Origin: a virus | Direction: 5' to 3' (one strand) | DNA length: 64,000 nt | Virus record (IMG/VR): IMGVR_UViG_3300027963_005443 | In this document: in pieces, positions 5,315 through 23,544 of the stretch | Layout of the letters: every line of letters starts with the position of its first letter | How positions within the stretch are numbered: the first letter of the stretch is position 1 | Notes under the pieces: model-generated | Seen by the model: only the letters and a program-made list of their open reading frames with translations | Databases searched by the model: none | What the model was told of the DNA's origin: nothing | Position numbers and translations under genes: made by a program

Positions 5315-5334
5315 CAACCGTACCAAAAGGAAAC
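5315..5334 (-). promoter_or_regulatory. GTTTC-Y5-GGTACGGTT motif, copy 1
   Basis: Minus strand gtttccttttggtacggttg, about 34 nt upstream of the 5281 ATG. Confidence 0.8.
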
Positions 5335-5376
5335 CGAGAGGGATAAAAAATGAAAAATTTAATCCTCTTATGAGGT

Positions 5377-6906
5377 ATGATCCCATCCGGCAAAATTATT
5401 TGCATCAAAGTAAAACATGGATTGGCAAATAGATTGCGGACTTTGAATTCTTTTTATAATTTTGCAGAAGAGAATAATTTCGAATTAAGAGTTCTCTGGG
5501 GTGAAGGGGCAGGGTGGTCTGATGAGAAATTCTACGACTTGTTTCAAAAAACAAAATTAAAATTCATAAATGAAAAAGAATATGAAGAATTATCTTTGCT
5601 GAATTTTAATCTAGACAGGGTGATTTACAAAAATGAAAAAAATCCAGACGAATATGTTCACGAAATTGAACAAAATTCAATAATTGATTTTATTAAAAAA
5701 AATTCTTTTTGTTATTATGGCGATTCTTGCATTGAATACATGTTAAGTTCTTTATGGCACAATTACGGCAAATATGAATTTATTAAAAGTTTAAAATTCA
5801 AACCAGAAATACAAAATAAAATAAAGAATATAAGCAAGTCTTTTAATAAAAATACCATAGGAATTCACATAAGAAGAGGAGACTCAACAACAAGTCCATG
5901 GAAAGACAAGTTTGGCATTTCCGATAACGAGTCATTTGTGATTAAAATAAATGAAGAAATAGAAACAAATCCGGATTGTAATTTTTTCTTATCAACAGAC
6001 TGCGAGGATACCAATAATTATTTTGTAAATAAATTTCCAAATTTATTATGGAATAAAGATAAAAAGTTTTTTAAGAATATCAATCACTTAGAAAGTAAAC
6101 CAGGTCAAAAAGATGCGTTAATTGATATGATGCTATTATCTGGGACAAAAAAAATAATAGGATCAAATTGGAGTAGCTTTTCATATATTTCTTCAAAGAT
6201 AAACAAAATTCCATTAATTATAGCAAAAAAACAAGAAGCAAAATTAATTCCAAAAAAAGAAGAAACTATTTCATTGATTTGTTCTGTTAAGAACAGAACT
6301 GACATGCTGAAAATATCTATTCAATCATGGATAAAACATAAAGATATAAAAGAATATGTAATAGTAGATTGGTCCTCAGATGAAGACATATCTTACTTAT
6401 CAAAGTTGGATGATCGGATTAAAGTAATCAGGGTGGAAAATGAAAAATACTTTTCAGTTGTAAAAGCACCAAATTTAGCAATAAAAAATACCTGTGGCGA
6501 TTTGATTATAAAAATGGATGTGGATTATATTTTAAATCCATATTACGACTTTTTTCAAGAATATAAAATTAAAAAAAATGAGTTTCTAACAGGTAACTGG
6601 GAAGATTTCCTGATCGACAATGATATGGGATTTATTAGATATTTGCACGGATTCCTTTATGTTCACAGAGAAAATTTGATAAAAATAGGTGGATATAACG
6701 AATTGATGAAAAATTATGGATATGAAGATTGCGATATATTCAATAGATTAACTGGTATTGGTTTGGAAAGAAAATATTTAAACCATAACAAACCATGTAT
6801 AATTCATATGCCGCATCCAGATTCAGTCAGATCTGAGAATTATGAAAATAAAGATATAATGGAAACCTTAACAGATAATTATAAAATATCTAATGGTTTA
6901 GAGTGA
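5377..6906 (+). CDS. Two-domain glycosyltransferase: fucosyltransferase-like GT-B plus GT2/GT7-like GT-A
   Basis: N-half HGLANRL, IGIHIRRGD, FFLSTD, DMMLLS, SSFS; C-half KMDVD, GGYNE, YGYEDCD. Confidence 0.8.
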   Translation: MIPSGKIICIKVKHGLANRLRTLNSFYNFAEENNFELRVLWGEGAGWSDEKFYDLFQKTKLKFINEKEYEELSLLNFNLDRVIYKNEKNPDEYVHEIEQNSIIDFIKKNSFCYYGDSCIEYMLSSLWHNYGKYEFIKSLKFKPEIQNKIKNISKSFNKNTIGIHIRRGDSTTSPWKDKFGISDNESFVIKINEEIETNPDCNFFLSTDCEDTNNYFVNKFPNLLWNKDKKFFKNINHLESKPGQKDALIDMMLLSGTKKIIGSNWSSFSYISSKINKIPLIIAKKQEAKLIPKKEETISLICSVKNRTDMLKISIQSWIKHKDIKEYVIVDWSSDEDISYLSKLDDRIKVIRVENEKYFSVVKAPNLAIKNTCGDLIIKMDVDYILNPYYDFFQEYKIKKNEFLTGNWEDFLIDNDMGFIRYLHGFLYVHRENLIKIGGYNELMKNYGYEDCDIFNRLTGIGLERKYLNHNKPCIIHMPHPDSVRSENYENKDIMETLTDNYKISNGLE

Positions 6907-7804
6907 TAAATTTTTCAATAGCTTTTTCTTTTTTCTTAAACTCAAAATCTATGTCGATTTCGCTGTCGTAAAAGCTGGGAATATTTGAAGGATAGTCTGC
7001 GTGTGCTCTTGGATTCTTTTCATCCCGAGACTCACTGTAGTGGAATAGGGGTTTAAAACTGCCCCAAGAGTGACAGCAGAGGTCGAACGCCTCTTTCTCC
7101 GATAATCCGTCCGGGTGGCATTTGTGATGGAGAAAGTCGAAAGTAATTGGAGAATTAAATTTTTTATAATAAAATTCAGATAGTTTTTTTACACTCCAAC
7201 ACTTTGTTTTATCGTCATTTTCCAAAACTATCCTAGACCTGCAATTGTCATCCAATATATCTAAACTAGCAGATAGCCTACTGATTATCTCCTCACAACT
7301 ATCCTGATTGTTATTTATATGAAGGTTTATAGGGGAGTTATAATCAGCAGAGCATCCAATTTGATCCATAACCCAGCTATAAAAATTTAATTCCTTAATA
7401 GTTCTTGATAAAGCATTTTCATCTTTGCTGGCAAGGACATTGAATTGATCAGGGTGCAGGCTTATCCTAACACTGTTCACAGAATTGTATTCTTTTATCT
7501 GCTTGAAAAGATCAATTATTTTATCATAATCCGGCAATTGCTCTAGCGATAAATCGGCCTTGTCATACGTTATCAATGAAAATAAGTCACTACTTAGCCT
7601 ATAATTAAAATTACGTTCTTTACAATACTTTATAGCATTGAATGTAACATCAATATTATTGAGTATTCTTTTGCTAAGTTCAGTCACGGCCTCTTCTCTT
7701 GGAGTTTGACTAAACTTTTTATAAGTCATTCTTTGAAATTTCTTTGGAGGATCATTTTCCTCTAATGAGAGAATAATACAACAAATTCCGTATCTAATGT
7801 TCAT
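6890..7804 (-). CDS. uvsE: UV-damage endonuclease
   Basis: RYGICC, YRLSSDLF, RISLHPDQFNVL, LEND, PITFDFLHH, HYSES, AHADY, DFEFKKKE. Confidence 0.92.
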   Translation of the reverse strand: MNIRYGICCIILSLEENDPPKKFQRMTYKKFSQTPREEAVTELSKRILNNIDVTFNAIKYCKERNFNYRLSSDLFSLITYDKADLSLEQLPDYDKIIDLFKQIKEYNSVNSVRISLHPDQFNVLASKDENALSRTIKELNFYSWVMDQIGCSADYNSPINLHINNNQDSCEEIISRLSASLDILDDNCRSRIVLENDDKTKCWSVKKLSEFYYKKFNSPITFDFLHHKCHPDGLSEKEAFDLCCHSWGSFKPLFHYSESRDEKNPRAHADYPSNIPSFYDSEIDIDFEFKKKEKAIEKFITLNH

Positions 7805-7813
7805 ATATAATGT

Positions 7814-8443: not shown

Positions 8444-8781
8444 AACGGGATATTAGAACGAAACTCAGATACGCTGATATCACATCTGGTTTCGTGCTCA
8501 TCGTAGGCATGTCTTAATTTATGCCCTACTATCTTTTCGATCTTTTTAAGAAGCTTTTTTGTAATCTTTTCTCCAAAATAAAAACAATCTCCAACAATTC
8601 TTGCCCTTCTTTGGCAATAAGGAAGATTGATTATATTGGAGAGTGATACTTTGTATTTATTGGCTACTATTGGGGCAACAACTTCTTCCCAAAATTCTGT
8701 ATGGTTTTTATCTTCTTTAACATGAAGAACTGTGTCATCATCTAGGATATAAACAGGGTATCCCCCATCAAAGTCAGACAT
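8440..8781 (-). CDS. Hypothetical protein
   Basis: 113-aa ORF whose start overlaps the ligase stop. Confidence 0.7.
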   Translation of the reverse strand: MSDFDGGYPVYILDDDTVLHVKEDKNHTEFWEEVVAPIVANKYKVSLSNIINLPYCQRRARIVGDCFYFGEKITKKLLKKIEKIVGHKLRHAYDEHETRCDISVSEFRSNIPF

Positions 8782-10048
8782 CTCGTTCTCCGTCGTATAG
8801 ACACTTAAAAACAGGAAACCTCAAACTAAACCCGCCATCTTGATTGGTAGATTCTGCGAAATACTTCACAGTGATTGTTTTACCGATAATCTTTTTAGGA
8901 TTTTTATAATACTCTCTTCTTTCTTCTACATTCCATCCACTGCCTACCCTGACAGGAAACCCCTTGTGTTCTATAGTAACACAGCTTAACATTACTTCTT
9001 CAATCTCTTTTCCGTCAACAACTTGATGAATAGGTCCAAATTCAACATCCTTTACAACGTACTCAGCATCAAAGAATGTCTTGCATTTTAGAAGCTCTTT
9101 TGTTCTTTTGCCTTTATATGTTGAATTTAATCGAAGCATCAAGCCTTCCCAATTACTATCATCCGCTTCCTTCAATAGCTTTTTAAAGTGGTCATCATCT
9201 TTGACTATTTCCTGATGCAATATATGAAGAAATTTATTGTCTTTGGGTATATTCTTCTCAAGAAGAGCCAATCTGTCTTCTAGATTTAATTTTCCTTTTT
9301 TATTATAGAATTCCTCTGCGCTAAGGAAGTCAAATATTTTGTAAACAGGAAAAGGAATTGAGTAGTCCTTTTTTCTGATCAATTTCATAATGCCTTGAAA
9401 GTCTTCAATGCCATCCTTGAAGATGCAAACCTCACCATCTAAGACAATGTTCTTAATACCTAATTTTTGAATTTCTTTTTCAAGAACAGAAAGAGTGGTA
9501 AAGATCTTGCCTTGCCTGCTGTATGATGTTGCATTCCCATGCTCATCCACAACCGTAATGCAGCGGCAACCGTCCAATTTCCTGCTGGCGTAATAGTCGC
9601 TAGAGGAAAAATCTAAATCTTTTTCATGCTTTTCAGCAAGAGCAACTTCAAACTCAGGGATAAGTCCGGGAATTGCCTTGTTGATAGTTTTTTCGGCTAT
9701 TCTTGTTTTAAGATCCTTGTCCAAGATATTGAATACAATGTCCTTATGATCAGGATTTTTTTCAATAAAAGAATTCACGCAGCCAATTGCTTCGTGTCCC
9801 GTAACAATTCTTTTTCTTAGATTATCAAGCAATTCAAAGACATCACTGAAAGATTTTCCTTTCAGTGAACTATTCTTTTCACAAACACTGCTCGTGATAT
9901 AAAACTGGTAGTATGGGTTGTAGACATACATCACCAGTTTTTTTAGATCATCATCTTCAAGATGAGTTTTTAATATTTTTACTTTATCTAAACTCGAAGA
10001 TGTATCTTTAAGAAGATCCGATAATTTCTTTATTTTATTTAAAACCAT
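8774..10048 (-). CDS. lig: ATP-dependent DNA ligase
   Basis: RKLDGCRC, LDGEV, IFDFL, EGLMLR, KRTKELLKCK, RVGSG, SLRFPVF. Confidence 0.95.
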   Translation of the reverse strand: MVLNKIKKLSDLLKDTSSSLDKVKILKTHLEDDDLKKLVMYVYNPYYQFYITSSVCEKNSSLKGKSFSDVFELLDNLRKRIVTGHEAIGCVNSFIEKNPDHKDIVFNILDKDLKTRIAEKTINKAIPGLIPEFEVALAEKHEKDLDFSSSDYYASRKLDGCRCITVVDEHGNATSYSRQGKIFTTLSVLEKEIQKLGIKNIVLDGEVCIFKDGIEDFQGIMKLIRKKDYSIPFPVYKIFDFLSAEEFYNKKGKLNLEDRLALLEKNIPKDNKFLHILHQEIVKDDDHFKKLLKEADDSNWEGLMLRLNSTYKGKRTKELLKCKTFFDAEYVVKDVEFGPIHQVVDGKEIEEVMLSCVTIEHKGFPVRVGSGWNVEERREYYKNPKKIIGKTITVKYFAESTNQDGGFSLRFPVFKCLYDGERDV

Positions 10049-10087: not shown

Positions 10088-10107
10088 AAACCGTACCGGA
10101 AAGAAAC
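10088..10107 (-). promoter_or_regulatory. GTTTC-Y5-GGTACGGTT motif, copy 2
   Basis: gtttctttccggtacggttt, about 40 nt upstream of the ligase ATG. Confidence 0.8.
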
Positions 10108-10263: not shown

Positions 10264-11088
10264 TTACTTTTGATCCAACACAGTTTTAATGATGGCCAGT
10301 TTAGAACTGTTGTCCATATTGGAATCAAGAATGCTATCCAATACAGACTTCATTTCTGAAATGGCGAAAGCGGGAAAACTGGGCTTTAAAACAGTTTTCT
10401 GGGTCAGAACTTTCTTGTTCTTGTTCTTGTTCTTGCTCCTACTCCGCTTTGCATTCTTACCAAAACTATATTTGGCGTCTATGACAGCCTCATTCTTACG
10501 CAGGGCGGTTTTAATCGCACTACGCACAGCCACATCGCAAATATTAAATTGGGCAGCAATTTCTTTGATTGTCTTGCCGCTATTGAGCAGTTCACACATT
10601 TCAAGCCTTCGTTCCTGCTGAACCTTTCTGACTCCGGTGGGACGCTCAGGCAGAGTTCTACGATAAAAATCGTACGAACCTTTAACGGTCCATTTGCCAA
10701 CACTAATTCGATTAGTTGCATGACCTTCTTTGTTCAAGATCTTAACAATATAATCCCAACTCTTCTTTGCGTTAACAAGACCGTCAATTCTCTCGTAAGT
10801 TTCTTTGCGACTAAACTTATTCATAATAGCGACCTTCTTTGTGTTATTTTTTGGAAAACTCTTTTTACGACGAACAACCGCATTTTTTGTAATCAAGAAA
10901 TCATAAACAAATTCTTGATCTTCTCTTTTATTGCCTTTCCATAAGGCAATCAATTCGAAACATTCTTTTTTACTTAGATTGCAATTTCTTGAATCCAAGC
11001 CAGTGAGCATAAACAAGTAGTATGTTTGGGATTTACTTGCAGGCTCAATATCGATATTAGACTTATTATCAACAACCATTACATCCAT
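10264..11088 (-). CDS. Hypothetical DNA-binding protein (HTH-like)
   Basis: KTIKEIAAQFNICDVAVRSAI resembles an HTH; basic linker; SD gggag upstream. Confidence 0.7.
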   Translation of the reverse strand: MDVMVVDNKSNIDIEPASKSQTYYLFMLTGLDSRNCNLSKKECFELIALWKGNKREDQEFVYDFLITKNAVVRRKKSFPKNNTKKVAIMNKFSRKETYERIDGLVNAKKSWDYIVKILNKEGHATNRISVGKWTVKGSYDFYRRTLPERPTGVRKVQQERRLEMCELLNSGKTIKEIAAQFNICDVAVRSAIKTALRKNEAVIDAKYSFGKNAKRSRSKNKNKNKKVLTQKTVLKPSFPAFAISEMKSVLDSILDSNMDNSSKLAIIKTVLDQK

Positions 11089-11131
11089 GATTATGCTCCC
11101 AATATTATTTTAATAAAAAACAAATTAATCA

Positions 11132-11175
11132 GAAGGGCAATAATGGGGCTTGGGCGGCACCCATTATTGCCCTTC
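11132..11175 (-). terminator. Intrinsic terminator-like hairpin
   Basis: 16-bp perfect inverted repeat gaagggcaataatggg/cccattattgcccttc with T-rich flanks, just after the 11192 stop. Confidence 0.8.
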
Positions 11176-11191
11176 CTTTTTTAAGAAGTTG

Positions 11192-11587
11192 TCAATAAGA
11201 CAACTTCTTAAGCGTGTTTGCTGCAGAAATAATATCCTCAACAGACATCTTTTCCATAAGACCCTTGACAAGGAGCATCTGCTCAACTACAGGCTGATTG
11301 CTGTAACGATTATGTCCACGGCTCTTCTTCGAAGAAAAACCCTTCTTAGGAGAAACCTTGCGACGGCGCTTTCCAGCGGCCATCACCTTTGATTTCTTGG
11401 GGAGAGGATTCTTCATCCTGCTCTTGGTTACAGAAACGAAGGTACTGGTGACTTCAATACCCTTCTCTGCAAGTTCCTTGACAATTTCAGCGGGCTTTGC
11501 CGAAGGATTCTTGGCAATAAGATCACGGATCATGCTAGTCTTATTGACCTTGGGGGCTTTCTCGGTATTTTCAACACTATCAGTCAT
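11192..11587 (-). CDS. Small basic putative nucleoid/DNA-binding protein (Planctomycete-like family)
   Basis: NKTSMIRDLIAKNPSAKPAEIVKELAEKGIEV...VS..K helical domain, K/R-rich linker; SD aggag. Confidence 0.75.
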   Translation of the reverse strand: MTDSVENTEKAPKVNKTSMIRDLIAKNPSAKPAEIVKELAEKGIEVTSTFVSVTKSRMKNPLPKKSKVMAAGKRRRKVSPKKGFSSKKSRGHNRYSNQPVVEQMLLVKGLMEKMSVEDIISAANTLKKLSY

Positions 11588-11626
11588 TGAAGAATCTCCT
11601 TTGGTTAAATTAACGGAACACTACAA

Positions 11627-11655
11627 AATGTAGACGACTAGTAAAAATTTGTCAA
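11627..11655 (-). promoter_or_regulatory. Sigma70-type promoter
   Basis: TTGACA-N17-TACATT upstream of the 11587 start. Confidence 0.6.
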
Positions 11656-11667
11656 CAACAAATTTTC

Positions 11668-11964
11668 TCAAGGTTGCGGCGGCGGGGCAATGAATTCTGC
11701 AAAGTCCGAGACGCTAATTCTGCTGGCTATGGCACGAGTAAGCATCTCAATAGTTTGGACATAATTTAAGTTACGCTTGATCTTAGTGGGCCTCATACTT
11801 TCATCCTTGTAATATTTTAAGGTAAATTGCCAAGGATTAGTTTCATTATTTACTAAGATGGATTCTATATGATATTCTCTGCAACCGTATTTCTTGTCTT
11901 CCAAAGAATTTCGGCAAGCATTGGACATGAGTTCAGTCAAAAACTTTGTTACATCTATTTCCAT
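11668..11964 (-). CDS. Hypothetical protein; start reassigned to ATG 11964
   Basis: ORF track gives 11982, but that start lies inside regulatory motif copy 3. Confidence 0.6.
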   Translation of the reverse strand: MEIDVTKFLTELMSNACRNSLEDKKYGCREYHIESILVNNETNPWQFTLKYYKDESMRPTKIKRNLNYVQTIEMLTRAIASRISVSDFAEFIAPPPQP

Positions 11965-11970
11965 GACCTT

Positions 11971-11990
11971 CAACCGTACCAAAAAGAAAC
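11971..11990 (-). promoter_or_regulatory. GTTTC-Y5-GGTACGGTT motif, copy 3
   Basis: gtttctttttggtacggttg ending 6 nt before ATG 11964. Confidence 0.8.
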
Positions 11991-11994
11991 TCTT

Positions 11995-12798
11995 TCAGTT
12001 AGAAGATCTCTCCATATAAAACTTCCTAGTTCCCAGGTGGCCTATAATATCTTTGGCCAATTCTACACAAAGTTTTGTATCTGATTCTACAACGTATTCA
12101 TCTGAGCAATGCTGATTGTAGTAGCCCACTGGGAGAACAGCGCAACAGAAATCGAAATTTTTCCTCAATTGAACAACATCAGTGAAAGGATCTCTTGAGA
12201 TATTATTGATATTATACTTGTCTAATATGCTTTCAACAGTGGAAAAAAACTCTTCTGTCCAGAGTTTATGTCCACTGCAAGTCTTGCTGAACCAGTTATT
12301 CGTTGGGGCATCAGGTTGAAGGGCATAACCTACATTCTCAAAGAATTTGGGATCCAAAGAAGATGATCCAAGCATACCAATTTCTTCTTCTACAAAGAAG
12401 GCAATCTTTATATTATCTAATTCCTCTAGCAATCTTAGGCAAACGTACACACCACATTTATTATCTCCGCCTATGCCTGTTTTTAATTTGGTTATTGGAT
12501 CATAAGCAACCAATATTGGTTTATAGTCAGAAAATTCATTATATAATTCAAAAATATTAAGATTAATATTTTTATCCACAAGATAGTCTTGATCATTGTG
12601 AACAGTATCCATATGACTAATTACACAAGGAAAATACGCATCTTTTTTTAATGATCCTTTTTGGACATAAATATTTCTTTTTTCATCAAGATAATGATGT
12701 AAATCATTTTTACGGCAAAAATCTAATATGAATTCTATAACCCTATCTTCTCTCTTTGAAACACTTGGTATAGAAAGAACATCTTTAAGATTAATCAT
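11995..12798 (-). CDS. M20/M28/M42-family metallopeptidase
   Basis: SHMDTVH, GGDNKCG, VEEEIG, QPD, YYNQH metal-ligand motifs. Confidence 0.85.
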   Translation of the reverse strand: MINLKDVLSIPSVSKREDRVIEFILDFCRKNDLHHYLDEKRNIYVQKGSLKKDAYFPCVISHMDTVHNDQDYLVDKNINLNIFELYNEFSDYKPILVAYDPITKLKTGIGGDNKCGVYVCLRLLEELDNIKIAFFVEEEIGMLGSSSLDPKFFENVGYALQPDAPTNNWFSKTCSGHKLWTEEFFSTVESILDKYNINNISRDPFTDVVQLRKNFDFCCAVLPVGYYNQHCSDEYVVESDTKLCVELAKDIIGHLGTRKFYMERSSN

Positions 12799-12877
12799 AT
12801 GAGATTAAGAATTTTACACATAGAAATGAATACAAAAAAACACATAAAATATATCGCAAGTAAAATTATTGATTCCA

Positions 12878-13147
12878 TCAATGAGCCCCTATATCAGAGG
12901 TATTGTAGATTCGAATCGCCCAGTCACTTTTAGCATCACAACTACGTCTTTTCATTTCTCCAGCACACCATTTGCTTCTTATCTTAAAACAGGCTCTTTG
13001 AATCTCGTCTATAGTAGGATAATAATTTTTATCCGGATTCATTTCTCCAATCAACTCAGGACGAAAATTAAAAGTTCCTAGTGGAAATTCAACCTTCATG
13101 GTCAGAGTCCTTTCTTTAAAGTTTACTTTTATACAAAGAACCAGCAC
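12878..13147 (-). CDS. Hypothetical protein; likely start ATG about 13099
   Basis: PTIDEIQRACFKIRSKW...EMKRR motif; SD aaagga before MKVEF. Confidence 0.6.
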   Translation of the reverse strand: MLVLCIKVNFKERTLTMKVEFPLGTFNFRPELIGEMNPDKNYYPTIDEIQRACFKIRSKWCAGEMKRRSCDAKSDWAIRIYNTSDIGAH

Positions 13148-13388
13148 GATTGATATTGAGCATTCTTGAAGTTGAAGACATTATAAATAAAAGAGAATGT
13201 TCCAATGCAGATTTCAACGTACTCTTACTTACACCTTCTTCCTCAAGAACACTCTTTAAAATTTTAATTGTATTATCCGTTGAATCAATAAATTGATCTA
13301 TTTCGTTCATGTCCATCAAATAAGATTCTCCAATCATTTGATCGATTGAAAATTTACTTGCAAGATGGATATATTCTTGTTTATTCAT
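13116..13388 (-). CDS. Hypothetical protein
   Basis: Coupled to neighbouring co-oriented ORFs. Confidence 0.65.
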   Translation of the reverse strand: MNKQEYIHLASKFSIDQMIGESYLMDMNEIDQFIDSTDNTIKILKSVLEEEGVSKSTLKSALEHSLLFIMSSTSRMLNINRAGSLYKSKL

Positions 13389-14265: not shown

Positions 14266-14285
14266 GAACCGTACCGGAAGGAAAT
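14266..14285 (-). promoter_or_regulatory. GTTTC-Y5-GGTACGGTT motif, copy 4 (ATTTC variant)
   Basis: atttccttccggtacggttc, about 72 nt upstream of the 14194 ATG. Confidence 0.7.
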
Positions 14286-15048: not shown

Positions 15049-15096
15049 AATTATCTCCTAGTTGAAAAAAAGAAAACAAACAAACCGAAGTCGAAC

Positions 15097-15124: not shown

Positions 15125-15132
15125 GTTTTTTT

Positions 15133-16989
15133 TTACATCCTAAGGCTTATCTGTCTTATGTATCTTGACATAACAGACAGGGACTTCTTGACATCATCTA
15201 AAACAATACTTTTGTTTTTTCCATATAATTTATCGGCGGTGGAGGCAGAAAAAGCATTGTCAATGCCAATGCCGATTATATCTATGGACATTTTTTTACG
15301 ACAAAATTCACAAACACTACCTGTGTGCTTAATGGCAGTACTTCCGCTATAGCCATATCCTTCCGGCTCTCCATCGGAAATAATAAACATAATTCTTTTA
15401 TCAAAAGAAAAAGAATCCTCGGCAAATTTTTTCGCAACATATTTAATGGCATGACCATCAAGATTCTGCTGCTTGGCGTTCATTTCAAAAATACTTGAGG
15501 TATCTTGTTGATCAAAAGTCTTGTAGCAAGTAATATCAATGTCTTCGTTGTTTTCGGTTTGTGCGGTATGTCCATATATACAGACTTTCAAACCGCTGAC
15601 AGATTTCATGGCCTCAGATAAAACAAAAGCAACCTCTTTTGCCAAATTTATTCTATCTCTATCCATCATAGAGCCGCTTTCATCAACTAAAAGACAGATT
15701 GCAATATTTTTCTTAGATTTTATTGTCTTTTCAGAATATATTCTATAGTCGTTATAGGCGAGCTTATGAAGACTGTTTTCATCTATGGCTCCATTCTCAT
15801 GCCCATAATCTTCAACAGAAGAATCTGTATTTCTAAAAAGCAAACACTTGCTTATTGATTGAATTTCTTTCTTAAATTTTTTCAGATACTTCTCTCTCAA
15901 CAATAGATTTTTCTTGTTTTCATTTTTAAAAATAAATTTTGGCTCTAACGGCTCGGCACAATTCTCGTAAATACGACAAACATAATCTTCTTCTTGAGGA
16001 GCTTCTACATCAATAGTTTTTGCCTCAGAAAAACTTTTATTTTTAACTTTATCTCCGAAAAGTTCATTATCTGTTATTTTGTAGTTGTCAAATTCCTCAA
16101 ATTCTGATTCTGACTCATTAGATTCGTCTAAATCTTTTGTGGGTTCTTGACCGAAATTACCGGAATTACCCGAGTTGTTTGAATCTTCCTTAGATTCATC
16201 TGAATCTTTTGTGGATTCTTGATTGCCTGAGTGACTTGAATTCTCTTTGAAATATTTTTTCGCAATATCAACAACTTTTTTACTAAATTCCCATCTTTTG
16301 TCGGCAGGCAAATTATCTATATCAAGAAGTTTTCTGCACTCATCATATATTTCAGAATATTGACCTGGGATCTTTAGGGAATTCTCAGAAAAAAGAATAT
16401 TCCAAGCAAACATAGAAGAAAAACCATCTATGTTGAAAGTACTATTCAATAGACTTTGAATCTTATCCTTCTCTGAAATATAATTTTCTGAATGTTTTAC
16501 AAAGTAGGGAATAAAGCCTTCCCAATTTTTAATTACCTCCTCCCTTGCAACGAACTGCTCTATTGCCTGCCAAATATTCTTGCAAGAATCGAAATCGGAA
16601 CCCTCCCCGACGAGCCTAGACTCAAGTTTAACTTTTTTCCAAGTATTTTTATCAACAGATCTTTTAAGCTGAGTTGCTAATAAAACTTTGCCGGTGAGGG
16701 CATCTACTATGAATTCATCCTTGGAATTAAGAAAATCATCCGGACTGATGAAGATATCATCCTTGCAGACATTGTTGGATTCTTCGCCACTGCTGAACGA
16801 TACCTTTACATTCTTCTCATTTTCTCCATCATTCAAAATAATATTGGCAGATCTATTTAATTGCCTGAGTAGAGATAAGCATTTGTTTTTATTGTCCGTC
16901 TTTCCTTGATCGTCAAAAATTCCTAATTTCTTTGTCCAAATACTAGTGGGAGAGTAATTGACACTATGTTCCGAAGAATTAAATCTCAT
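15133..16989 (-). CDS. vWA-domain protein (CobT/NorD-like MoxR partner)
   Basis: MIDAS LLVDESGSM, ISDGEP, IGIGI; acidic S/N/E linker. Confidence 0.85.
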   Translation of the reverse strand: MRFNSSEHSVNYSPTSIWTKKLGIFDDQGKTDNKNKCLSLLRQLNRSANIILNDGENEKNVKVSFSSGEESNNVCKDDIFISPDDFLNSKDEFIVDALTGKVLLATQLKRSVDKNTWKKVKLESRLVGEGSDFDSCKNIWQAIEQFVAREEVIKNWEGFIPYFVKHSENYISEKDKIQSLLNSTFNIDGFSSMFAWNILFSENSLKIPGQYSEIYDECRKLLDIDNLPADKRWEFSKKVVDIAKKYFKENSSHSGNQESTKDSDESKEDSNNSGNSGNFGQEPTKDLDESNESESEFEEFDNYKITDNELFGDKVKNKSFSEAKTIDVEAPQEEDYVCRIYENCAEPLEPKFIFKNENKKNLLLREKYLKKFKKEIQSISKCLLFRNTDSSVEDYGHENGAIDENSLHKLAYNDYRIYSEKTIKSKKNIAICLLVDESGSMMDRDRINLAKEVAFVLSEAMKSVSGLKVCIYGHTAQTENNEDIDITCYKTFDQQDTSSIFEMNAKQQNLDGHAIKYVAKKFAEDSFSFDKRIMFIISDGEPEGYGYSGSTAIKHTGSVCEFCRKKMSIDIIGIGIDNAFSASTADKLYGKNKSIVLDDVKKSLSVMSRYIRQISLRM

Positions 16990-16990
16990 A

Positions 16991-18070
16991 TCAATTACCC
17001 CACTTTCCTTGAATCATTTGAAGAATGGCGGCTCGCTCACTCTCTCTGCCGCCTTCACTGCTAAAATGATTAGTCAAAGTATATTCAAGTGTTGGAACTC
17101 CACCAACAACAAAATCCTGTGCAATGGATATTAGCTGCCTTGTGCTAACGCTCTTGGAGAACGAAGCATCAAGACCCATATTTTTCTTCCTAATAGTAGT
17201 CGCTATATCCACTAGCTTATTAGCGTCAGACTTTGCAATGCCAGTCCTGCTAATGAGTAGTTGGATTTCCTGGCTGTTTAAGAGATAATTAAGCTCAATG
17301 AGTCTTGGGAATCTATCTTCAAGAGCAAAATCTACGCTGGACGCCCCTGTATATCCTGCACCTTCATTCATGGTTGCAAAAAATACTGTCTTTTTGCCAA
17401 CCTTAATGATATCTCCCTTTTCTTCCAGATAGGTGAATCTCCTATCGTCCAATAATGGAAGCAAAGTATTCAGAACATTTGGAGAAGTTCTATTGATTTC
17501 ATCCAAAAGAATTACATGGCCACCACTTGTGATGCACTTATCAAACTGGCTTTCTTTCCAAAACACAGAACCATCCTTGGCGGTCTTATGACCAAACCAA
17601 TCTCTTGGCTCACGAAGATTAGCACAATCCATAATAAGAATTGGCATATTATATTGTGCCGCATATTGGATGGCCAATTCGGTCTTACCACAACCATGAG
17701 GACCAACTAAGCGAATATTCTGAGGGGATATCTCACTGAGCTTATCCAGATTCTTAAATAGATTGGATACATTTGTCCCAGAGATATAAGAAGGATCGGG
17801 CTTGGGATAAAATACTCCACCCTCGATCCTGCTTTCGCTCAAGACCCTTGATTGAAAAGAACCATCTTTGGGTTCACCGATTTCGTATTCGCCTTCTATC
17901 TCCTCAAAATTTGTAATTTTGGAATTTGCAATAACTCTGAGTTCTTCCGGCGTAACAATCTTATACCAATTGCCATCCGACTTCTGAGTGAATCCACTCT
18001 TGGTTCTTCCACGAGTCTTTTCAATCTTCAAAAGATGATTGTTTTCTTTGTCGGTAAAAATATAGTACAT
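16991..18070 (-). CDS. MoxR/CobS/CbbQ-like AAA+ ATPase
   Basis: Walker A GPHGCGKT, Walker B ILLDEINR, ATMN, EDRF, SVSTRQL. Confidence 0.9.
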   Translation of the reverse strand: MYYIFTDKENNHLLKIEKTRGRTKSGFTQKSDGNWYKIVTPEELRVIANSKITNFEEIEGEYEIGEPKDGSFQSRVLSESRIEGGVFYPKPDPSYISGTNVSNLFKNLDKLSEISPQNIRLVGPHGCGKTELAIQYAAQYNMPILIMDCANLREPRDWFGHKTAKDGSVFWKESQFDKCITSGGHVILLDEINRTSPNVLNTLLPLLDDRRFTYLEEKGDIIKVGKKTVFFATMNEGAGYTGASSVDFALEDRFPRLIELNYLLNSQEIQLLISRTGIAKSDANKLVDIATTIRKKNMGLDASFSKSVSTRQLISIAQDFVVGGVPTLEYTLTNHFSSEGGRESERAAILQMIQGKWGN

Positions 18071-18110
18071 TATTTTGTCCTTTTATTTGTAGTATCGGCC
18101 ATTCCTTGAC

Positions 18111-18130
18111 CAACCGTACCAGAGGGAAAC
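18111..18130 (-). promoter_or_regulatory. GTTTC-Y5-GGTACGGTT motif, copy 5
   Basis: gtttccctctggtacggttg, about 41 nt upstream of the AAA ATG. Confidence 0.8.
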
Positions 18131-18146
18131 TTATGGGATTTATTTC

Positions 18147-18242
18147 TGCCTAGCCGAGGGACCGTGCAAATGAAAATTCTTTGCAAATGAAAAAGATGTC
18201 AGGGGTGGAAATCCTTTCCAAAATCAGTCCCCCGACTAGGCA
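18147..18242 (-). ncRNA. Candidate structured small RNA, about 100 nt
   Basis: 16-bp closing stem with 14 Watson-Crick pairs and 2 mismatches that are G-U only on the minus strand; internal UGGAAA-GGA-UUUCCA hairpin; lies between motif copies 6 and 5. Confidence 0.6.
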
Positions 18243-18250
18243 GTGTGATT

Positions 18251-18270
18251 CAACCGTACCAGAAAGAAAC
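18251..18270 (-). promoter_or_regulatory. GTTTC-Y5-GGTACGGTT motif, copy 6
   Basis: gtttctttctggtacggttg ending 8 nt before the candidate RNA stem. Confidence 0.8.
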
Positions 18271-18293
18271 ATCCCCATTTAGGGGGCTGCGAG

Positions 18294-18321
18294 AAAATAG
18301 CAGATTTTTCAAGCTTGTCAA
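18294..18321 (-). promoter_or_regulatory. Sigma70-type promoter (weak -10)
   Basis: TTGACA-N16-TATTTT upstream of motif copy 6. Confidence 0.45.
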
Positions 18322-18340
18322 GCCCCCCTAAAAAATTTTT

Positions 18341-18610
18341 TCAGGAAGGCTCTTTTTTTACGACCACTGACAGATCTCTTGTTCCTTTTATGAGTCTGTG
18401 CCATTTATCTTTCGGAATAAATATCTGTCCTTTTATTTGAATTGGCAATTCATTATCAAATTGAAACATCCAATCTGTCTCTTCGTTGCATTCGATAATT
18501 CTATCTTCTTTATCATAATGCCATTGTAGATCATCATCTAGCACATTTTCTTTAAAAGTTCTAACAAATGTGTTGGGACTAATCTTTTCTTCTTCAAAAG
18601 GAAATTTCAT
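18341..18610 (-). CDS. Cupin-like conserved phage protein; start reassigned to ATG 18610
   Basis: WHYDKEDR...WMFQFDNELP...IFIPKDKWHRLIKG resembles a cupin barrel. Confidence 0.65.
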   Translation of the reverse strand: MKFPFEEEKISPNTFVRTFKENVLDDDLQWHYDKEDRIIECNEETDWMFQFDNELPIQIKGQIFIPKDKWHRLIKGTRDLSVVVKKEPS

Positions 18611-18611
18611 A

Positions 18612-19205
18612 TCACCATGTCCTCGAGCTAACCAGACCAACAGATTTAGCAAATCTCGCTATATTGCACGACCAATAACCAGGAGTAGTCCGATCTTTCT
18701 TTTCTGAGCACTTGTGTCTTGCACGAAAACTCTTGGCTCGGGATGGGTTATTATTTTTAATCTTTAAATTAGGATCTCCAAAACGAACTTTCTTTATATT
18801 TCCTGATGGCGATTTGACATAAACAGCAAATTTTTTGTTTTCACCAGGAGTTCTATGGGGTTTTCCCAATTGAACTTTTTTTCCCTTATACTCAGCTTCA
18901 TTTATTTCGTTGTCAATAACGGGGCAATCCAAATAAATAGTTTTCCCATTATAGTCGGCTGTTTCACCTGCATCGCTGGATACCAATTCGAGGTCATCAT
19001 CATTGATAGATATCATATTTTTATTATACAATTCTCTGACCTCTTTAATAAGATCAAAATATGACTCACTGTATAACCTGAAAATATTCTCTGAGAGAGA
19101 TATCTTGTTATCTAAGTGATATTTTAAGTTTTCACTAACTTTAATATTCTGGACTAGTTCCATAGGAGCAGGAGATTGGTTGATAAAATCTTTAAAACTA
19201 AGCAT
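18612..19205 (-). CDS. Conserved large-virus protein (DUF5754-like C-terminus) with capsid-targeting-like N-terminus
   Basis: KKFAVYVK...KKVRFG...SFRARHKC...GYWSC; starts MLSFKDFIN. Confidence 0.7.
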   Translation of the reverse strand: MLSFKDFINQSPAPMELVQNIKVSENLKYHLDNKISLSENIFRLYSESYFDLIKEVRELYNKNMISINDDDLELVSSDAGETADYNGKTIYLDCPVIDNEINEAEYKGKKVQLGKPHRTPGENKKFAVYVKSPSGNIKKVRFGDPNLKIKNNNPSRAKSFRARHKCSEKKDRTTPGYWSCNIARFAKSVGLVSSRTW

Positions 19206-19214
19206 ATATTATAT

Positions 19215-20762
19215 ATGGAAGAAATCAAATTTTCAGAATGGTTATTATTAATAGAGAGCCAAACTATAGCGCAATTGCTAAAAAATGACAAAGAAATAAA
19301 GTCGGACCCAGATTATCTAAAAGTGGTCAATTATATAAATAATAGAATCTTATCAGGGGTGAATCCAGGTTCCAAATACATTACCACATATATCAATTTC
19401 TTTTTTTATAATTTTTACAAAAAACTCACAAGTGTAACAGTCAACAACCCATACAATAAACCATACAATAGGGGATTCATGAGATATGCACAACCAGGTG
19501 TGTTAGCTCAACTTGGCAACCAAATAGATGAAACAATTGATTATTTAGTGGCTAATAGTGACAACAATATTTTAAAATCAAAACTCAACAATAGCCAATT
19601 CACTATTGAGATGCTTATAAAAGAAAGCGAAGAATGGCACGAAAGAATTGAGACTTCAAAAGCTAAACCTGCGGCAGAGGCTGCTACATTTATGGATCTA
19701 AGTCATTTAGGATCTTCTTGGAATGGATGGAGATGGGTTCTATTAGATAAAAGATCATGTGAAAAAGAAGGCGCAAGTGCAGGTCATTGTGGAAATGCAG
19801 CAGGAAAAGAAGGCGATAACATTCTATCGTTAAGAGACACAAGTAATGTTGCATATTTAACATTCATAATTAACGACGGTGCTTTGGGAGAAATGAAAGG
19901 CAGAAACAATAGCAAGCCCTCAATAAGATTCCACCCAGCGATAATAGAATTACTAAAAAATAATATTGTGAAGACAGTCAAGGGTGGAGGATACAAGCCA
20001 GAGAACAATTTTTCTATGGATGATTTAGATGAAAGTGTAAAACAAACTCTTTACAAATTAAAACCAAGTCTAAATTACGATCTATATATTGAGCAATATT
20101 TTAACAAAGAAATATTTAAATTAAAGAATCCAAGAGAAATACTAATAAAAATACAAGAAATGTTTAATGATATTTTCGACTCAGTGGTTGGAGATGAATT
20201 AGTAGTCGATAAATTCGATAGCTTTAAAGATTTTTCTGAGAGAGCAAAGAAATACTACTCAGGAGATGTAGAAGATTTATCTTTTATGGATGATTTTGAT
20301 CCACAAATAGACCACGTATCAATCAAAGATATTTTCGATCATATTTCAGACAAAAATATTGAAATCATCAAAAAAATACTGACTTCAGAAGGTCAAGAAT
20401 ATGATGAGGATGATATTATGAGTGCGATAAATCGCAATAAAGAATTGCTTAGTGCAGTAGAAACAGCGGGTAGGCGTGGATATGAAGATGGGGCTCAATC
20501 AGACGCTTGGCAAAGAGTTACATCCTCTCTTTCCCAAAAAGATGAAAATGGATTCTATGCAGATGTAGAAAATGCAGAAAATATAATGGTAAAGATTGCT
20601 ATATCAAATCTTAAAAACATATACAAAGAGCATGCCAAAGATAATTACGAACTAAGAGAATTTGTTAAAATAGACTACACGCATCCATATCATGGATATG
20701 AAGGTTTTAATGAAGACTATTTCAACGATAATTTGAGTGATGAATTACATCAATTATCTTGA
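19215..20762 (+). CDS. PcfJ-like domain protein with capsid-targeting-like N-terminus; start reassigned to ATG 19215
   Basis: EWH...WRWVLL...EG..AGHC...ILSLRD...EMKGRNN..P; starts MEEIKFSEWLLLIE; acidic C-half. Confidence 0.7.
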   Translation: MEEIKFSEWLLLIESQTIAQLLKNDKEIKSDPDYLKVVNYINNRILSGVNPGSKYITTYINFFFYNFYKKLTSVTVNNPYNKPYNRGFMRYAQPGVLAQLGNQIDETIDYLVANSDNNILKSKLNNSQFTIEMLIKESEEWHERIETSKAKPAAEAATFMDLSHLGSSWNGWRWVLLDKRSCEKEGASAGHCGNAAGKEGDNILSLRDTSNVAYLTFIINDGALGEMKGRNNSKPSIRFHPAIIELLKNNIVKTVKGGGYKPENNFSMDDLDESVKQTLYKLKPSLNYDLYIEQYFNKEIFKLKNPREILIKIQEMFNDIFDSVVGDELVVDKFDSFKDFSERAKKYYSGDVEDLSFMDDFDPQIDHVSIKDIFDHISDKNIEIIKKILTSEGQEYDEDDIMSAINRNKELLSAVETAGRRGYEDGAQSDAWQRVTSSLSQKDENGFYADVENAENIMVKIAISNLKNIYKEHAKDNYELREFVKIDYTHPYHGYEGFNEDYFNDNLSDELHQLS

Positions 20763-21055
20763 TTTTTCTTCTTTCTCTTCTTCTTTGGCTTTTCTTCGGA
20801 AGCGTCAGACTCAATTTCTTTTTTGGGTTTACTTTTATTGCTAATAAGTCCGGCTAAGCGTTCACGCTCTTTTTTTGCCCCCAAACCTACTCCAAAAATC
20901 TTGTCTAAAACAGCAAGTTGCTCAGAGTGGCTTCTCTTATTTCTTAATTCTTGACGTTCAATTGCTTTTTCTCTTCTGTATTCTTTATTATATGACATAT
21001 TTTTACCTTTCGAGTGTAAATCTATTATATCATTTAGTTTGTTGAATGCAAGCAA
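20750..21055 (-). CDS. Small basic hypothetical protein; likely start ATG 20998
   Basis: MSYNKEYRREKA...KKKRKKK; SD aaaggt upstream of the internal ATG. Confidence 0.65.
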   Translation of the reverse strand: MLAFNKLNDIIDLHSKGKNMSYNKEYRREKAIERQELRNKRSHSEQLAVLDKIFGVGLGAKKERERLAGLISNKSKPKKEIESDASEEKPKKKRKKKNQDN

Positions 21056-21059
21056 AAAA

Positions 21060-21083
21060 AAACGCTGGATTGCTCCAGCGTTT
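21060..21083. terminator. Intrinsic terminator-like hairpin
   Basis: aaacgctgga-ttgc-tccagcgttt, with an A-run upstream on + (U-tract on the minus strand). Confidence 0.75.
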
Positions 21084-21108
21084 AAAAAAATATGTTTTTA
21101 ATCAGAAG

Positions 21109-21456
21109 TTATCGAGGAGAATATTCGTCTTCTTGACGAGTTGCTCTATAGTCACGCTCGTCATGATCATATCCTTCATCACGATCATCAAAAAATCTAT
21201 TCTTCTGCATATCTTCTAATTTGGTTAGAAGAGCGAATAGGGGAGGCGGAATATTTCGACCTCTATTTTGAATGGTATCCTCATTATTCAATAGAGCGTC
21301 GGCCAACATCTTGGCCATTTCCTGATTAAAACTAAGATTGAATTCACTTTGGAACTTATTTAGTTGAAAAGCCGGAATCTTTACGAAATCCCTCTTCTCA
21401 ATAATCTTCTTTTCCCTGTTTTCAAAACCGTTATTGATATAATCTCTCATTTTCAT
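21109..21456 (-). CDS. Hypothetical protein
   Basis: 115-aa ORF, charged C-terminus. Confidence 0.65.
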   Translation of the reverse strand: MKMRDYINNGFENREKKIIEKRDFVKIPAFQLNKFQSEFNLSFNQEMAKMLADALLNNEDTIQNRGRNIPPPLFALLTKLEDMQKNRFFDDRDEGYDHDERDYRATRQEDEYSPR

Positions 21457-21618
21457 GGTAGTAACTCTTTGTTAAAAACTATATTCCTTTAAAATTTAAA
21501 ATTGGCTAAAACTTCCATTCTTAGTCAATATTTTTATAAAAATCTTAATTATTATATCACACAGGCGAGTCTCCTAGATGGGATGATTTTCAACTATTTC
21601 AAATACGAAGGTAATGGA

Positions 21619-21888
21619 TCAACAGTTCGGATCAAAATCAGGAGACCAGTCAAAACACAGTGAAATTTCAGCAATCTCTCTTTCATAGCCCAATTTTTCA
21701 ACAAAGTCAAATACTTTTTTATAAGTTATCTTGCCGTGTTCTTCAATCCAATTCTCACAATAATCCATCAATTCTTTCTCTGTAGCCAAGTCTTTACCGC
21801 ACATCATCGCAGCAACTAACGCAAGTGCCACATTTGGTGATTGTTTTTGTTTTCTGCAAACAGATACGCCTTCAAGCATTGGACCCAT
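21619..21888 (-). CDS. Hypothetical protein
   Basis: Strong SD ggagg upstream. Confidence 0.6.
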   Translation of the reverse strand: MGPMLEGVSVCRKQKQSPNVALALVAAMMCGKDLATEKELMDYCENWIEEHGKITYKKVFDFVEKLGYEREIAEISLCFDWSPDFDPNC

Positions 21889-21927
21889 AATATTCCTCCT
21901 TTGAAGAGGATTATTATATAAAAGGGT

Positions 21928-22374
21928 TTATTTTTTGTCAATAAGGTTCTTTAATTTAAGCTTTTTTTGATTTTTACATTTCAAATCTGAGAGTGCGCCC
22001 CAAATTTGAAAATTTGGATTATTTAAATCTTTGCAGGTAACAACACTGAAACTTCCAACACTTTCATTTGTTATAAAATTTGCTTTTTTCCACCAATTAT
22101 CTGGTATTTTATGAAAACCTTTTTTAATATAATCTATTAGATTATCTTTTTTAACAAATTCACTGCTTCCTTGACCGTCATAGGATAAGTAATCTGGGGA
22201 TTGTGGAACTTTTGCTATAAATTTGGAACCTTGGTTCATAACCCTGCCATCACTGTTAATAGTGGCGGGATGTTTTTCAAACTGCATATCCACAGCGGAA
22301 ACAACACTGTCCCCTATTCTGAGTTTATGAGGCAAGGTGAAACTTGCCATTTCTAGGTATTCTCGGAATTGCAT
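21928..22374 (-). CDS. Hypothetical protein with capsid-targeting-like N-terminus
   Basis: MQFREYLE start; TATATA 5 nt upstream of ATG 22374. Confidence 0.7.
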   Translation of the reverse strand: MQFREYLEMASFTLPHKLRIGDSVVSAVDMQFEKHPATINSDGRVMNQGSKFIAKVPQSPDYLSYDGQGSSEFVKKDNLIDYIKKGFHKIPDNWWKKANFITNESVGSFSVVTCKDLNNPNFQIWGALSDLKCKNQKKLKLKNLIDKK

Positions 22375-22386
22375 CAATTTATATAT

Positions 22387-23472
22387 TCAGGCAACTTCCT
22401 TAATTTTCTTCTCTACAAGATTTCTTTTAATTAATTCTTTGCGGCCCTGCTTGGTTAATCTTAGACCTCTAGGGGTGACATAAACAAGGCTGGGCTGGTC
22501 TTCGGAATCCGCCAGCAGCCAAGGAAGAATATATTTGTCTATTTCTTCCGTCTTTTTATTGAGAAGGTACTGGAGCCTCTTCATGGCCACAGTCTTATAT
22601 TTATAGAGATATTTCAAAATGGCCAGATGGGTTTCGTGCATCCCGTGTTCATCAATTCCCTCGTTTGCGGCAATGGTTCTGGCTGTTTCTTCCCAAGAAA
22701 AACCATTCATAGACCTGTGAAGTTTCATATATTTCGCAAATTCTATGGCTTTTCTTGGTATCTTAGAATTATAGTGAGCAACCAAATCGCAAACATTCTG
22801 AGGTAATTCAGGAAAATTATGATGAACTATCTGACCAATTTCTTTCTTAGTCAAATATTTGAGTTCTAGGCCACTGAATCTCGACCTAAAGGCATCAAAA
22901 ACTTTACCAATATCTGTTGTGGCTATGATCCAACAAGCCTTGTAACAGTCAATATGGCCTCCAGACTCGGTTGTTAGAATAGCATCCTTGGTTTCAGTGG
23001 CCTTTAGAAGACCCTGAACAATATTGTTTCTTAGAGCATGAACTTCATCAATAAAAATAATACACGGAGGAAGCATATAAGAATTGCTATCCTTGACCTG
23101 TTCGACCAGGGGAATATTTTCTTTATACAAAGAAATAGAAATCTGTTCCACTAAATCGTCGAGACTCGTGATGCTTCTAGGGCTAATCTCAACCAGGGGC
23201 AACTGCAGCACTTTGGCGAACTTTCTCACCAAAGAGGTTTTTCCGCTACTTGCCGGGCCTGTGATGCAGAGGGATATATCCCTGCAGAGGTGATTCTCTT
23301 TTTGAAGAGCATCAAAAGCAATAATAGAAAGCTTGGATATGGCTTTTCGATTTCCCACAAAACCATAAAAAGGCGAAATATGATTGTCTGGATCCACCAG
23401 ACCTTTGAAATAATCCTTATCTTCTTCAGTTATAATGTTATTAGAATTGAAAAACTTCTTTTCAAGTTGCAT
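22387..23472 (-). CDS. ruvB: RuvB-like AAA+ helicase
   Basis: GPASSGKTSL, IFIDEVHAL, IATTD.G...AFRSRF, IPRKA, GIDEHG, C-terminal winged helix ending TPRGLRLT. Confidence 0.8.
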   Translation of the reverse strand: MQLEKKFFNSNNIITEEDKDYFKGLVDPDNHISPFYGFVGNRKAISKLSIIAFDALQKENHLCRDISLCITGPASSGKTSLVRKFAKVLQLPLVEISPRSITSLDDLVEQISISLYKENIPLVEQVKDSNSYMLPPCIIFIDEVHALRNNIVQGLLKATETKDAILTTESGGHIDCYKACWIIATTDIGKVFDAFRSRFSGLELKYLTKKEIGQIVHHNFPELPQNVCDLVAHYNSKIPRKAIEFAKYMKLHRSMNGFSWEETARTIAANEGIDEHGMHETHLAILKYLYKYKTVAMKRLQYLLNKKTEEIDKYILPWLLADSEDQPSLVYVTPRGLRLTKQGRKELIKRNLVEKKIKEVA

Positions 23473-23524
23473 TTCGATGCCTTATAATTTTATTATTTTA
23501 ATATCCAGCAGACTCTCATTGGTC

Positions 23525-23544
23525 CAACCGTACCAAAAAGAAAC
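23525..23544 (-). promoter_or_regulatory. GTTTC-Y5-GGTACGGTT motif, copy 7
   Basis: gtttctttttggtacggttg, about 53 nt upstream of the ruvB-like ATG. Confidence 0.8.

Follow-up and report, generated by a model that had tools for sequence, protein, structure and literature searches.

Middle promoters of bacteriophage T4 are read by sigma appropriation through MotA and AsiA. They keep the sigma70 -10 element TAtaaT at -12 to -7 and carry at -30, 12 +/- 1 bp upstream of the -10 element, a MotA box with the sequence (a/t)(a/t)(a/t)TGCTTtA (PMC2988021). T4-like phages also have the PeSL cassette, whose promoter part is an E. coli sigma70 consensus with a -35 element, a -10 element and an AT-rich upstream region (PMC2839356, PMC4122927). 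Here we describe a repeated signal, GTTTC-Y5-GGTACGGTT (Y, pyrimidine), in a 64,000-nucleotide stretch of DNA (the window; IMG/VR record IMGVR_UViG_3300027963_005443) from an uncultured lake phage. Judged from its sequence and surroundings, the signal, whose invariant core is the 8-mer GGTACGGT, is very probably a promoter, and it probably represents a phage-specific class without a -35 element that needs an extra specificity determinant. Its closest functional analogue is the T4 middle promoter, yet the motif is no member of that class; its closest architectural analogue is the PeSL cassette.

Private phage promoters without a -35 element are well known, and the motif is a further example of this common theme. 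The Lpa-dependent late promoters of phage P1 and the extended -10 promoters of Thermus phage P23-45 are -35-less promoters of late or middle classes in much smaller phages; an upstream box lies about 22 bp before the start or the hexamer, and phage proteins act on the host RNA polymerase. Like these promoters the present motif is compact and -35-less, with its box centred about 22 bp upstream in canonical numbering, but it has no sequence similarity to them.

The phage and its relatives

The window is, as its first bases indicate, the continuation of the 251,265-bp IMG/VR contig IMGVR_UViG_3300027963_000035 (hereafter the contig; CheckV completeness 50%). A 54-nt tandem repeat with a higher-order period of 144 nt (100% identical) fills the first 440 bases of the window and is also the end sequence of the contig; the window therefore continues the contig, and the assembly broke inside the repeat. 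Window and contig together give a phage of more than 315 kb. Two related contigs were used for comparison. G002 (65.6 kb, from a different sample) is syntenic with the contig at 93-162 kb and has 65-85% nucleotide identity to it, and L056, a 20.9-kb metagenome contig, is collinear with window positions 10863-25532 at 77-82% identity. Metagenome scans for the motif gave mostly single, chance-like matches, the useful relatives being contigs of Ga0194038 and Ga0194035. Megablast with 19 kb of the window gave no match to cultured phages, and tblastn with the ligase and AAA proteins gave distant matches only. With 1 + 1 copies, the 484-kb record LR756508.1, from an uncultured phage, lacks the motif. 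A literature search on the core string returned primer sequences only, and one on promoter motifs of huge phages returned nothing relevant.

An invariant core confined to one strand

The preliminary description of the window had listed seven minus-strand copies of the motif, each with GTTTC, an all-pyrimidine 5-nt spacer and an invariant 9-mer. All seven exist, although each start coordinate was one base too low (corrected in Table 1). The window contains seven copies of the 9-mer GGTACGGTT, 7/7 of them on the minus strand, whereas shuffled sequences are expected to hold 0.12 copies and never held more than one. The full pattern GTTTC-Y5-GGTACGGTT has six matches in the window against 0 expected: copy 4 has ATTTC in place of GTTTC, and the spacer is all-pyrimidine in every copy including this one. 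The ninth base, constant within the window (7/7), varies in the contig (T in 27 copies, A in 17, C in 4 and G in 4), and the true invariant core is therefore the 8-mer GGTACGGT.

This core is present 59 times in the contig and the window, against about 1.5 and 0.4 copies expected per strand. All copies except one are on the minus strand, and these 58 are confined to a zone of about 128 kb that runs from contig 146.4 kb to window 23.5 kb. The exception, on the plus strand at contig 112950, stands ahead of a gene on that strand and has a conserved counterpart in a relative. A scan with a position weight matrix added about 10 degenerate copies, which lie within this zone on the minus strand, and found no additional copy, exact or degenerate, in the window; the total in the available DNA is about 60-70. 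Plus-strand genes make up about 20% of the coding sequence in the zone and have no copy, so the class belongs to one gene set and not to all genes.

When positions are counted from the first core G as 0, conservation among the 59 sites spans -10 to +9, position 8 being typically T or A, and then takes in T14-Y15-R16-T17 (R, purine): a pyrimidine stands at position 15 in 47/59 sites and a purine at position 16 in 54/59. Nothing is conserved across the 59 sites in the -35 region (-35 to -26), and the motif itself has no conserved secondary structure. The base before GG is T in 31/59 copies, which gives the TGn of an extended -10 element, and C in 22/59; in the window it is T in 5/7, in agreement with the five TGn copies first reported. 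A few copies (contig 177206, contig 161488 and G002 copy 63753) have TTGACA or TTGACG 16-17 nt upstream of TACGGT.

The copies form two sub-classes on the common core. GTTTC followed by pyrimidines is found in 24/26 copies above contig 160.5 kb and in all seven window copies (as ATTTC in copy 4), with a median spacing of 2.8 kb. The second sub-class has a GATnG-type box (e.g. GATTGATTTT; in G002 GATAGTCTCT) and fills a 14-kb block at contig 146-160.5 kb, where copies stand before nearly every mini-gene with a median spacing of 429 nt; of the 25 copies below contig 160.5 kb only one is GTTTC-like. The syntenic block of G002 is likewise rich in copies. The GTTTC box, put forward as a feature of the class, thus marks one sub-class that is spread over about 115 kb beyond the mini-gene block. 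With two interchangeable boxes upstream, the class may fall into two subsets that differ in regulation or timing.

At the low end of the zone (contig 146,360-146,500) exact and degenerate cores are crowded within 140 nt. About 400 nt of AT-rich non-coding DNA follows, and then a 434-aa gene and tRNA genes.

Position relative to genes and predicted transcription start

Most copies begin 0-25 nt past the stop codon of the preceding co-oriented gene, and a same-strand frame that stays open for 40 codons on each side was found at 3/59 sites, compared with 35% of random positions in the zone. Copies in both orientations and inside genes, the pattern that might be expected of a replication, packaging or RNA-processing site, are thus not the rule in this phage.

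The distance to the first ATG that opens an open reading frame (ORF) of at least 60 aa was determined for 82 sites in the contig, the window and G002. This ATG lies exactly at position 16 in six sites, copy 3 of the window among them. The intervals 8-15 and 19-26 are empty, a single ATG falls at 18, and from 27 up the distances spread broadly, usually with a Shine-Dalgarno (SD) sequence. A pyrimidine-purine step is the usual preference at bacterial start sites. We predict that transcription starts at position 16, 8 nt past the core and 9 nt past the last T of TACGGT; the ATG distances would take this form because a transcript from position 16 would be either leaderless or provided with an SD-sized leader. 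The start had been placed about 7 nt after TACGGT with a range of 6-9 nt, and the prediction of 9 nt is at the upper edge of that range. Copy 3 is close to its ATG as described, at 7 nt and not 6 nt when counted from the 9-mer, and copy 6 is indeed followed by 8 nt and then a long stem.

Genes for RNA also have copies. The copy at contig 156113 has the first base of the tRNA-Glu gene at its position 18, and the tRNA-Lys gene starts 33 nt from the copy at contig 161488; a purely translational role is therefore excluded. Copies 1 and 7 are in divergent gaps facing plus-strand genes, so the minus-strand genes there need a promoter of their own.

Both relatives preserve the motif. G002 has 23 copies, 21 of them on one strand, in orthologous places. 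L056 keeps copies 3, 4, 6 and 7 base for base amid diverged upstream flanks; copy 3 still has its leaderless ATG, copy 4 shows the canonical GTTTC there and a hairpin preserved through compensatory changes, and copy 5 has a one-base insertion within the core. In 16 putative orthologous pairs, which were chosen by downstream similarity and include at least one doubtful pairing, core-anchored identity is near random upstream of -15 and 0.6-1.0 from -10 to +9. The strand lock, the intergenic position, the conservation in two relatives and the pyrimidine-purine step together support the early proposal of a phage-specific promoter class co-oriented with its genes.

The promoter would then consist of an upstream box at -10 to -1 (in the window GTTTC and five pyrimidines), the core GGTACGGT at 0-7, T or A at position 8, and a pyrimidine-purine step at 15/16 with the start at 16. 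The mRNA would be leaderless when ATG is at position 16, or would have a leader of at least 11 nt bearing an SD sequence. A phage-coded or phage-modified sigma-type factor may read GGTACGGT as an extended -10-like element, or an activator may act on the upstream box, as in T4 sigma appropriation or P1 late activation.

The seven window copies, their targets and neighbouring features

The seven copies and their targets are given in Table 1, together with the other features discussed below. DNA ligase, the RuvB-like AAA protein and the AAA-vWA pair, a MoxR/CobS-like AAA protein and a vWA/CobT-like protein, had been named correctly as targets. The middle regulon that was read from them holds as an analogy only.

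Table 1. Motif copies and other features of the phage (positions are those of the window unless the contig is named).
Feature	Position	Strand	Sequence	Predicted start	Target or remark
Copy 1	5316..5334	-	GTTTCCTTTT GGTACGGTT; 9-mer 5316-5324	G 5308	Serves 197-aa gene 4688-5281; 95-nt divergent gap opposite plus-strand glycosyltransferase gene 5377-6906
Copy 2	10089..10107	-	GTTTCTTTCC GGTACGGTT; 9-mer 10089-10097	G 10081	ATP-dependent DNA ligase gene 8774-10048; leader ~33 nt
Copy 3	11972..11990	-	GTTTCTTTTT GGTACGGTT; 9-mer 11972-11980	11964	Predicted start is the A of the ATG of 98-aa ORF 11668-11964 (leaderless mRNA predicted)
Copy 4	14267..14285	-	ATTTCCTTCC GGTACGGTT; ATTTC; 9-mer 14267-14275	G 14259	20-bp hairpin + U6 (14211-14256) 3 nt past predicted start; then SD and ATG of gene 13814-14194
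Copy 5	18112..18130	-	GTTTCCCTCT GGTACGGTT; 9-mer 18112-18120	18104	AAA (MoxR/CobS-like) gene 16991-18070 and vWA (CobT-like) gene 15133-16989
Copy 6	18252..18270	-	GTTTCTTTCT GGTACGGTT; 9-mer 18252-18260	A 18244	Heads the 114-nt RNA
Copy 7	23526..23544	-	GTTTCTTTTT GGTACGGTT; 9-mer 23526-23534	~23517-23518	RuvB-like AAA gene 22387-23472; T, not purine, at position 16
Structured RNA or leader, 114 nt	18131..18244	-			Between copies 6 and 5
Sigma70-type promoter	23580..23607	-	TTGACA-16-TAGAAT		~35 nt upstream of copy 7; hexamers kept in L056, spacer diverged
Sigma70-type candidate	18294..18321	-	TTGACA-16-TATTTT with TG		Upstream of copy 6; hexamers kept in L056
Perfect sigma70 consensus	21913-21941	-	TTGACA-17-TATAAT		Then SD and ATG of 89-aa gene 21619-21888
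274-aa lineage-specific protein	10264-11088	-			Just upstream of copy 2
Helix-turn-helix paralogs (alignment A1)	Contig ~147.6, 151.1, 156.3, 159.5, 161.7, 181.8, 244.1, 247.2 kb				Orthologues in G002; none in window
Group I introns (loci L014, L017, L018)	Contig 144,338-144,530; 208,810-209,003; 227,827-228,020	-			Rfam RF00028
54-nt tandem repeat	1-428; contig 250,891-251,265				~8 copies; inside a long ORF

The 114-nt RNA headed by copy 6 is predicted to have a 19-bp closing stem from nucleotide 2 of the transcript and a folding energy of -50.4 kcal/mol (z = -9.0). It is shortened and rearranged in L056 and has no Rfam match; Rfam and ARAGORN found no known RNA and no tRNA in the window.

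Other observations concern RNA in the zone of the motif. Three group I introns (59-69 bits) are present; one adjoins a tRNA-Thr gene, and one overlaps an odd ARAGORN tRNA call (contig 208,765-208,832). At contig 192,090-192,227 (minus strand) the 134-nt leader after a motif copy holds a stretch GGTTCGACTCC that resembles a tRNA T-arm, and ARAGORN and Rfam called no tRNA there.

Other promoter signals of the phage

A few canonical sigma70-type promoters are present, and elements of two of them are conserved in L056 (Table 1), although sigma70 consensus matches are not enriched overall (99 versus about 97 in shuffles). The host primary sigma factor therefore appears to read the ordinary promoters of this phage, and GGTACGGT appears to be something else. 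Together with the lack of a -35 element, this leads us to infer that the class needs an extra determinant. The top two families of 8-mers enriched upstream of genes are the GGTACGGT motif family and TATATA. In the window and the contig the TATATA box peaks 10-13 nt ahead of ATG, on both strands. There are 31 genes with GGTACGGT and 67 with TATATA, and 0 with both. The phage genome is thereby split into three promoter types, canonical sigma70, GGTACGGT and TATATA.

Search for the reading factor

A phage sigma factor or a MotA-like protein had been suggested as the reader. No gene for a sigma factor, an RNA polymerase, MotA or AsiA was found in the contig (251 kb) or in G002 (65 kb), nor was one found among the window ORFs scanned with Pfam, PHROGs and NCBIfam, the genome being incomplete. 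In the contig, Sigma70 region 2 gave no match, and PF00562 (an RpoB domain) gave none while matching 14/14 control genomes, beta' models lying outside the search; a multisubunit phage RNA polymerase of the phiKZ/AR9 type, with its beta/beta'-like subunits, was thus not found in the contig. PF00940 (T7-type RNA polymerase) gave no match in the contig and likewise none in the control genomes, which makes it uninformative. The MotA C-terminal domain PF09158 (MotCF) had no match in the contig or G002, and PF09010 (AsiA) had an unconvincing 13-bit match in the contig (E 0.019) and none in G002. Since no factor gene was found, the reading factor is purely inferred.

Weak region-4-like matches led to eight paralogous helix-turn-helix (HTH) proteins of 76-110 aa in the contig. 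Most of their genes are directly behind a GGTACGGT copy, three of them with long, similar leaders. The fold appears to be a generic winged or LysR-DNA-binding-domain-like one: an AlphaFold2 model had a pLDDT of 67, with LysR DNA-binding domains as the best Foldseek hits (E about 0.08), and in a PDB profile search the best natural DNA-binding protein was LrpA (E 0.0015), a lower E going to a designed repeat protein. These paralogs are candidates for reading the upstream boxes, nothing more. A conserved leader RNA was considered and rejected: the downstream similarities GTTGTTCCGA and AAAGGGTTG are leaders of the paralogous HTH genes and lie outside the motif. The 274-aa protein encoded just upstream of copy 2 has a weak LuxR/GerE/sigma-region-4-like HTH at residues ~154-200 and only five close homologues, one of which was named a CsgD-family regulator by its source; an Atlas search with it gave no usable look-alike.

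We consider it doubtful, though conceivable, that a so far unrecognised factor of huge T4-related phages reads GGTACGGT while members of the HTH family read the two boxes. The factor could then be a sigma-like protein or a virion-delivered modifier of the polymerase.

Comparison with known promoter classes

Several features are shared with T4 middle promoters. An upstream box private to the phage replaces the -35 element, a TAnnnT-type hexamer is kept, and TGn precedes it in about half of the copies. The copies number about 60; they serve ligase, repair and nucleotide-metabolism genes as well as tRNAs, and some stand in tandem with sigma70-type promoters, recalling the early-plus-middle arrangement of T4 (PMC2988021). 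The differences lie in sequence and geometry. The box is GTTTC-Y5 or GATnG and not (a/t)3TGCTTtA; it starts 12 bp before TACGGT and ends 2 bp before it, and GTTTC and TACGGT are 7 bp apart, not 12 +/- 1. The hexamer is an invariant TACGGT, with CGG at its centre, after an invariant GG, and the predicted start is 9 nt past the hexamer where that of T4 is 7 nt past it. These differences, together with the negative searches for MotA and AsiA, place the motif outside the T4 middle class.

Like the PeSL cassette, the motif is composite, repeated and intergenic, set between a small gene's stop codon and the next SD sequence; it is dense in a block of orphan mini-genes (25 copies at contig 146-160.5 kb) and is sometimes joined with G-tract/C-tract stem-loops. 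Unlike PeSLs it has no -35 element, its core is GGTACGGT, and a stem-loop is found only at some copies (copy 4, upstream of copy 6, contig 147471 and contig 150971).

T4-type late promoters (TATAAATA, read by gp55) also have a single short element near the start and frequent near-leaderless starts. In this phage, however, it is the separate TATATA class, never co-occurring with GGTACGGT, that fits a late role.

Of two further classes, sigma54 promoters were rejected on spacing, and a T7-like reading also appears to fail. Sigma54 promoters have the form TGGCACG-N4-TTGC, with GG and GC 10 bp apart and the start about 12 nt past GC. TGGTACG in the motif resembles the -24 element, but the second patch (TTGT, positions 14-17) is 4 nt too far, and the ATG and tRNA starts at 16-18 leave no room for a start 24 nt past GG. 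With T7-like promoters the motif shares TACG at -14 to -11, which we treated as coincidence. T7-type promoters are conserved through -7 to +1, and the motif is not conserved over -7 to -1, positions -7 to -3 from its predicted start among them.

Weighing the promoter reading and its alternatives

Some observations weigh against a class of promoters read with the help of a phage factor. Besides the failure to find a gene for such a factor, all start sites are predicted from sequence alone. GAAGG or GAGG stands just before the ATG at copy 3 and at contig 194250, and read-through from further upstream could give a longer transcript on which these two ATGs have an SD sequence. In a sigma70-type open complex, a distance of nine nucleotides between TAnnnT and the start is long. 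The hairpin and U6 behind copy 4 would end its own transcript after about 50 nt, unless termination is incomplete or the stem mainly halts read-through from upstream. The copies with TG before TACGGT, about half of the total, might serve unmodified host holoenzyme as extended -10 promoters.

This last point can be carried further: unmodified host RNA polymerase would read TGGTACGGT as an extended -10 element, or an alternative sigma factor of the host would have the motif as its consensus, and the extra conservation would reflect strength tuning or recombination without any phage factor. TACGGT does fit the TAnnnT pattern of a -10 element, as was noticed from the start, and the frequency of TGn, the few copies with TTGACA or TTGACG at 16-17 nt and the failure to find a phage sigma factor or activator all agree with host polymerase, as does the early-like character of the mini-gene block, which needs a polymerase present at infection. 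The invariant CGG and the GG before TA are, however, not required by sigma70 contacts, and neither the CGG nor the long distance to the start is explained by them; the other half of the copies have no TG, the clear sigma70-type promoters of this same phage use TATAAT-like hexamers, and two position-locked upstream boxes suggest a bound factor. We regard reading by host polymerase without a phage factor as rather unlikely. Provided that the motif is a promoter, its dependence on a phage factor and not on unmodified host holoenzyme seems reasonably probable.

A signal acting in RNA, either an endoribonuclease cut near position 16 or the site of a translational or stability regulator within polycistronic transcripts, would suit the location of most copies right behind a co-oriented gene with no terminator, where they are probably transcribed by read-through. 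It would also suit copy 4, which lies before and not after its terminator hairpin, and the several predicted 5' ends that adjoin stable stems. In the divergent gaps, however, RNA from upstream would have to run antisense through a 1.5-kb gene. The copies ahead of tRNA genes and the lack of conserved secondary structure in the motif also speak against such a signal, and an ATG exactly at position 16 in six genes fits initiation with its pyrimidine-purine preference. We find it improbable that the motif acts at the RNA level.

A recombination or cassette junction for the swapping of small genes, with promoter activity secondary or absent, is brought to mind by the copies flanking nearly every mini-gene and by the G-tract/C-tract stem-loops that adjoin some of them, PeSLs having been described as such cassettes (PMC2839356, PMC4122927), but is highly improbable: it leaves the fixed ATG and tRNA spacing and the pyrimidine-purine step unexplained, PeSLs are themselves promoters, which makes it an added role and not an alternative, and no indel bounded by copies is documented beyond the shortened RNA between copies 6 and 5 in L056.

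Implications

Huge phages that have not been cultured carry hundreds of genes, and hardly any of their regulatory signals have been mapped. As a promoter, the motif yields about 60-70 predicted transcription units, each with a start predicted to a single base, and it flags several putative leaderless genes and a structured 114-nt RNA. These predictions are checkable on lake metatranscriptomes without culture of the phage. Should the HTH paralogs prove to read the two boxes beside an unrecognised core factor, a non-structural region of about 128 kb would be timed by a new analogue of sigma appropriation with several branches. If the reader of GGTACGGT is a new factor, it would add to the means by which T4-like phages are known to redirect the host RNA polymerase.

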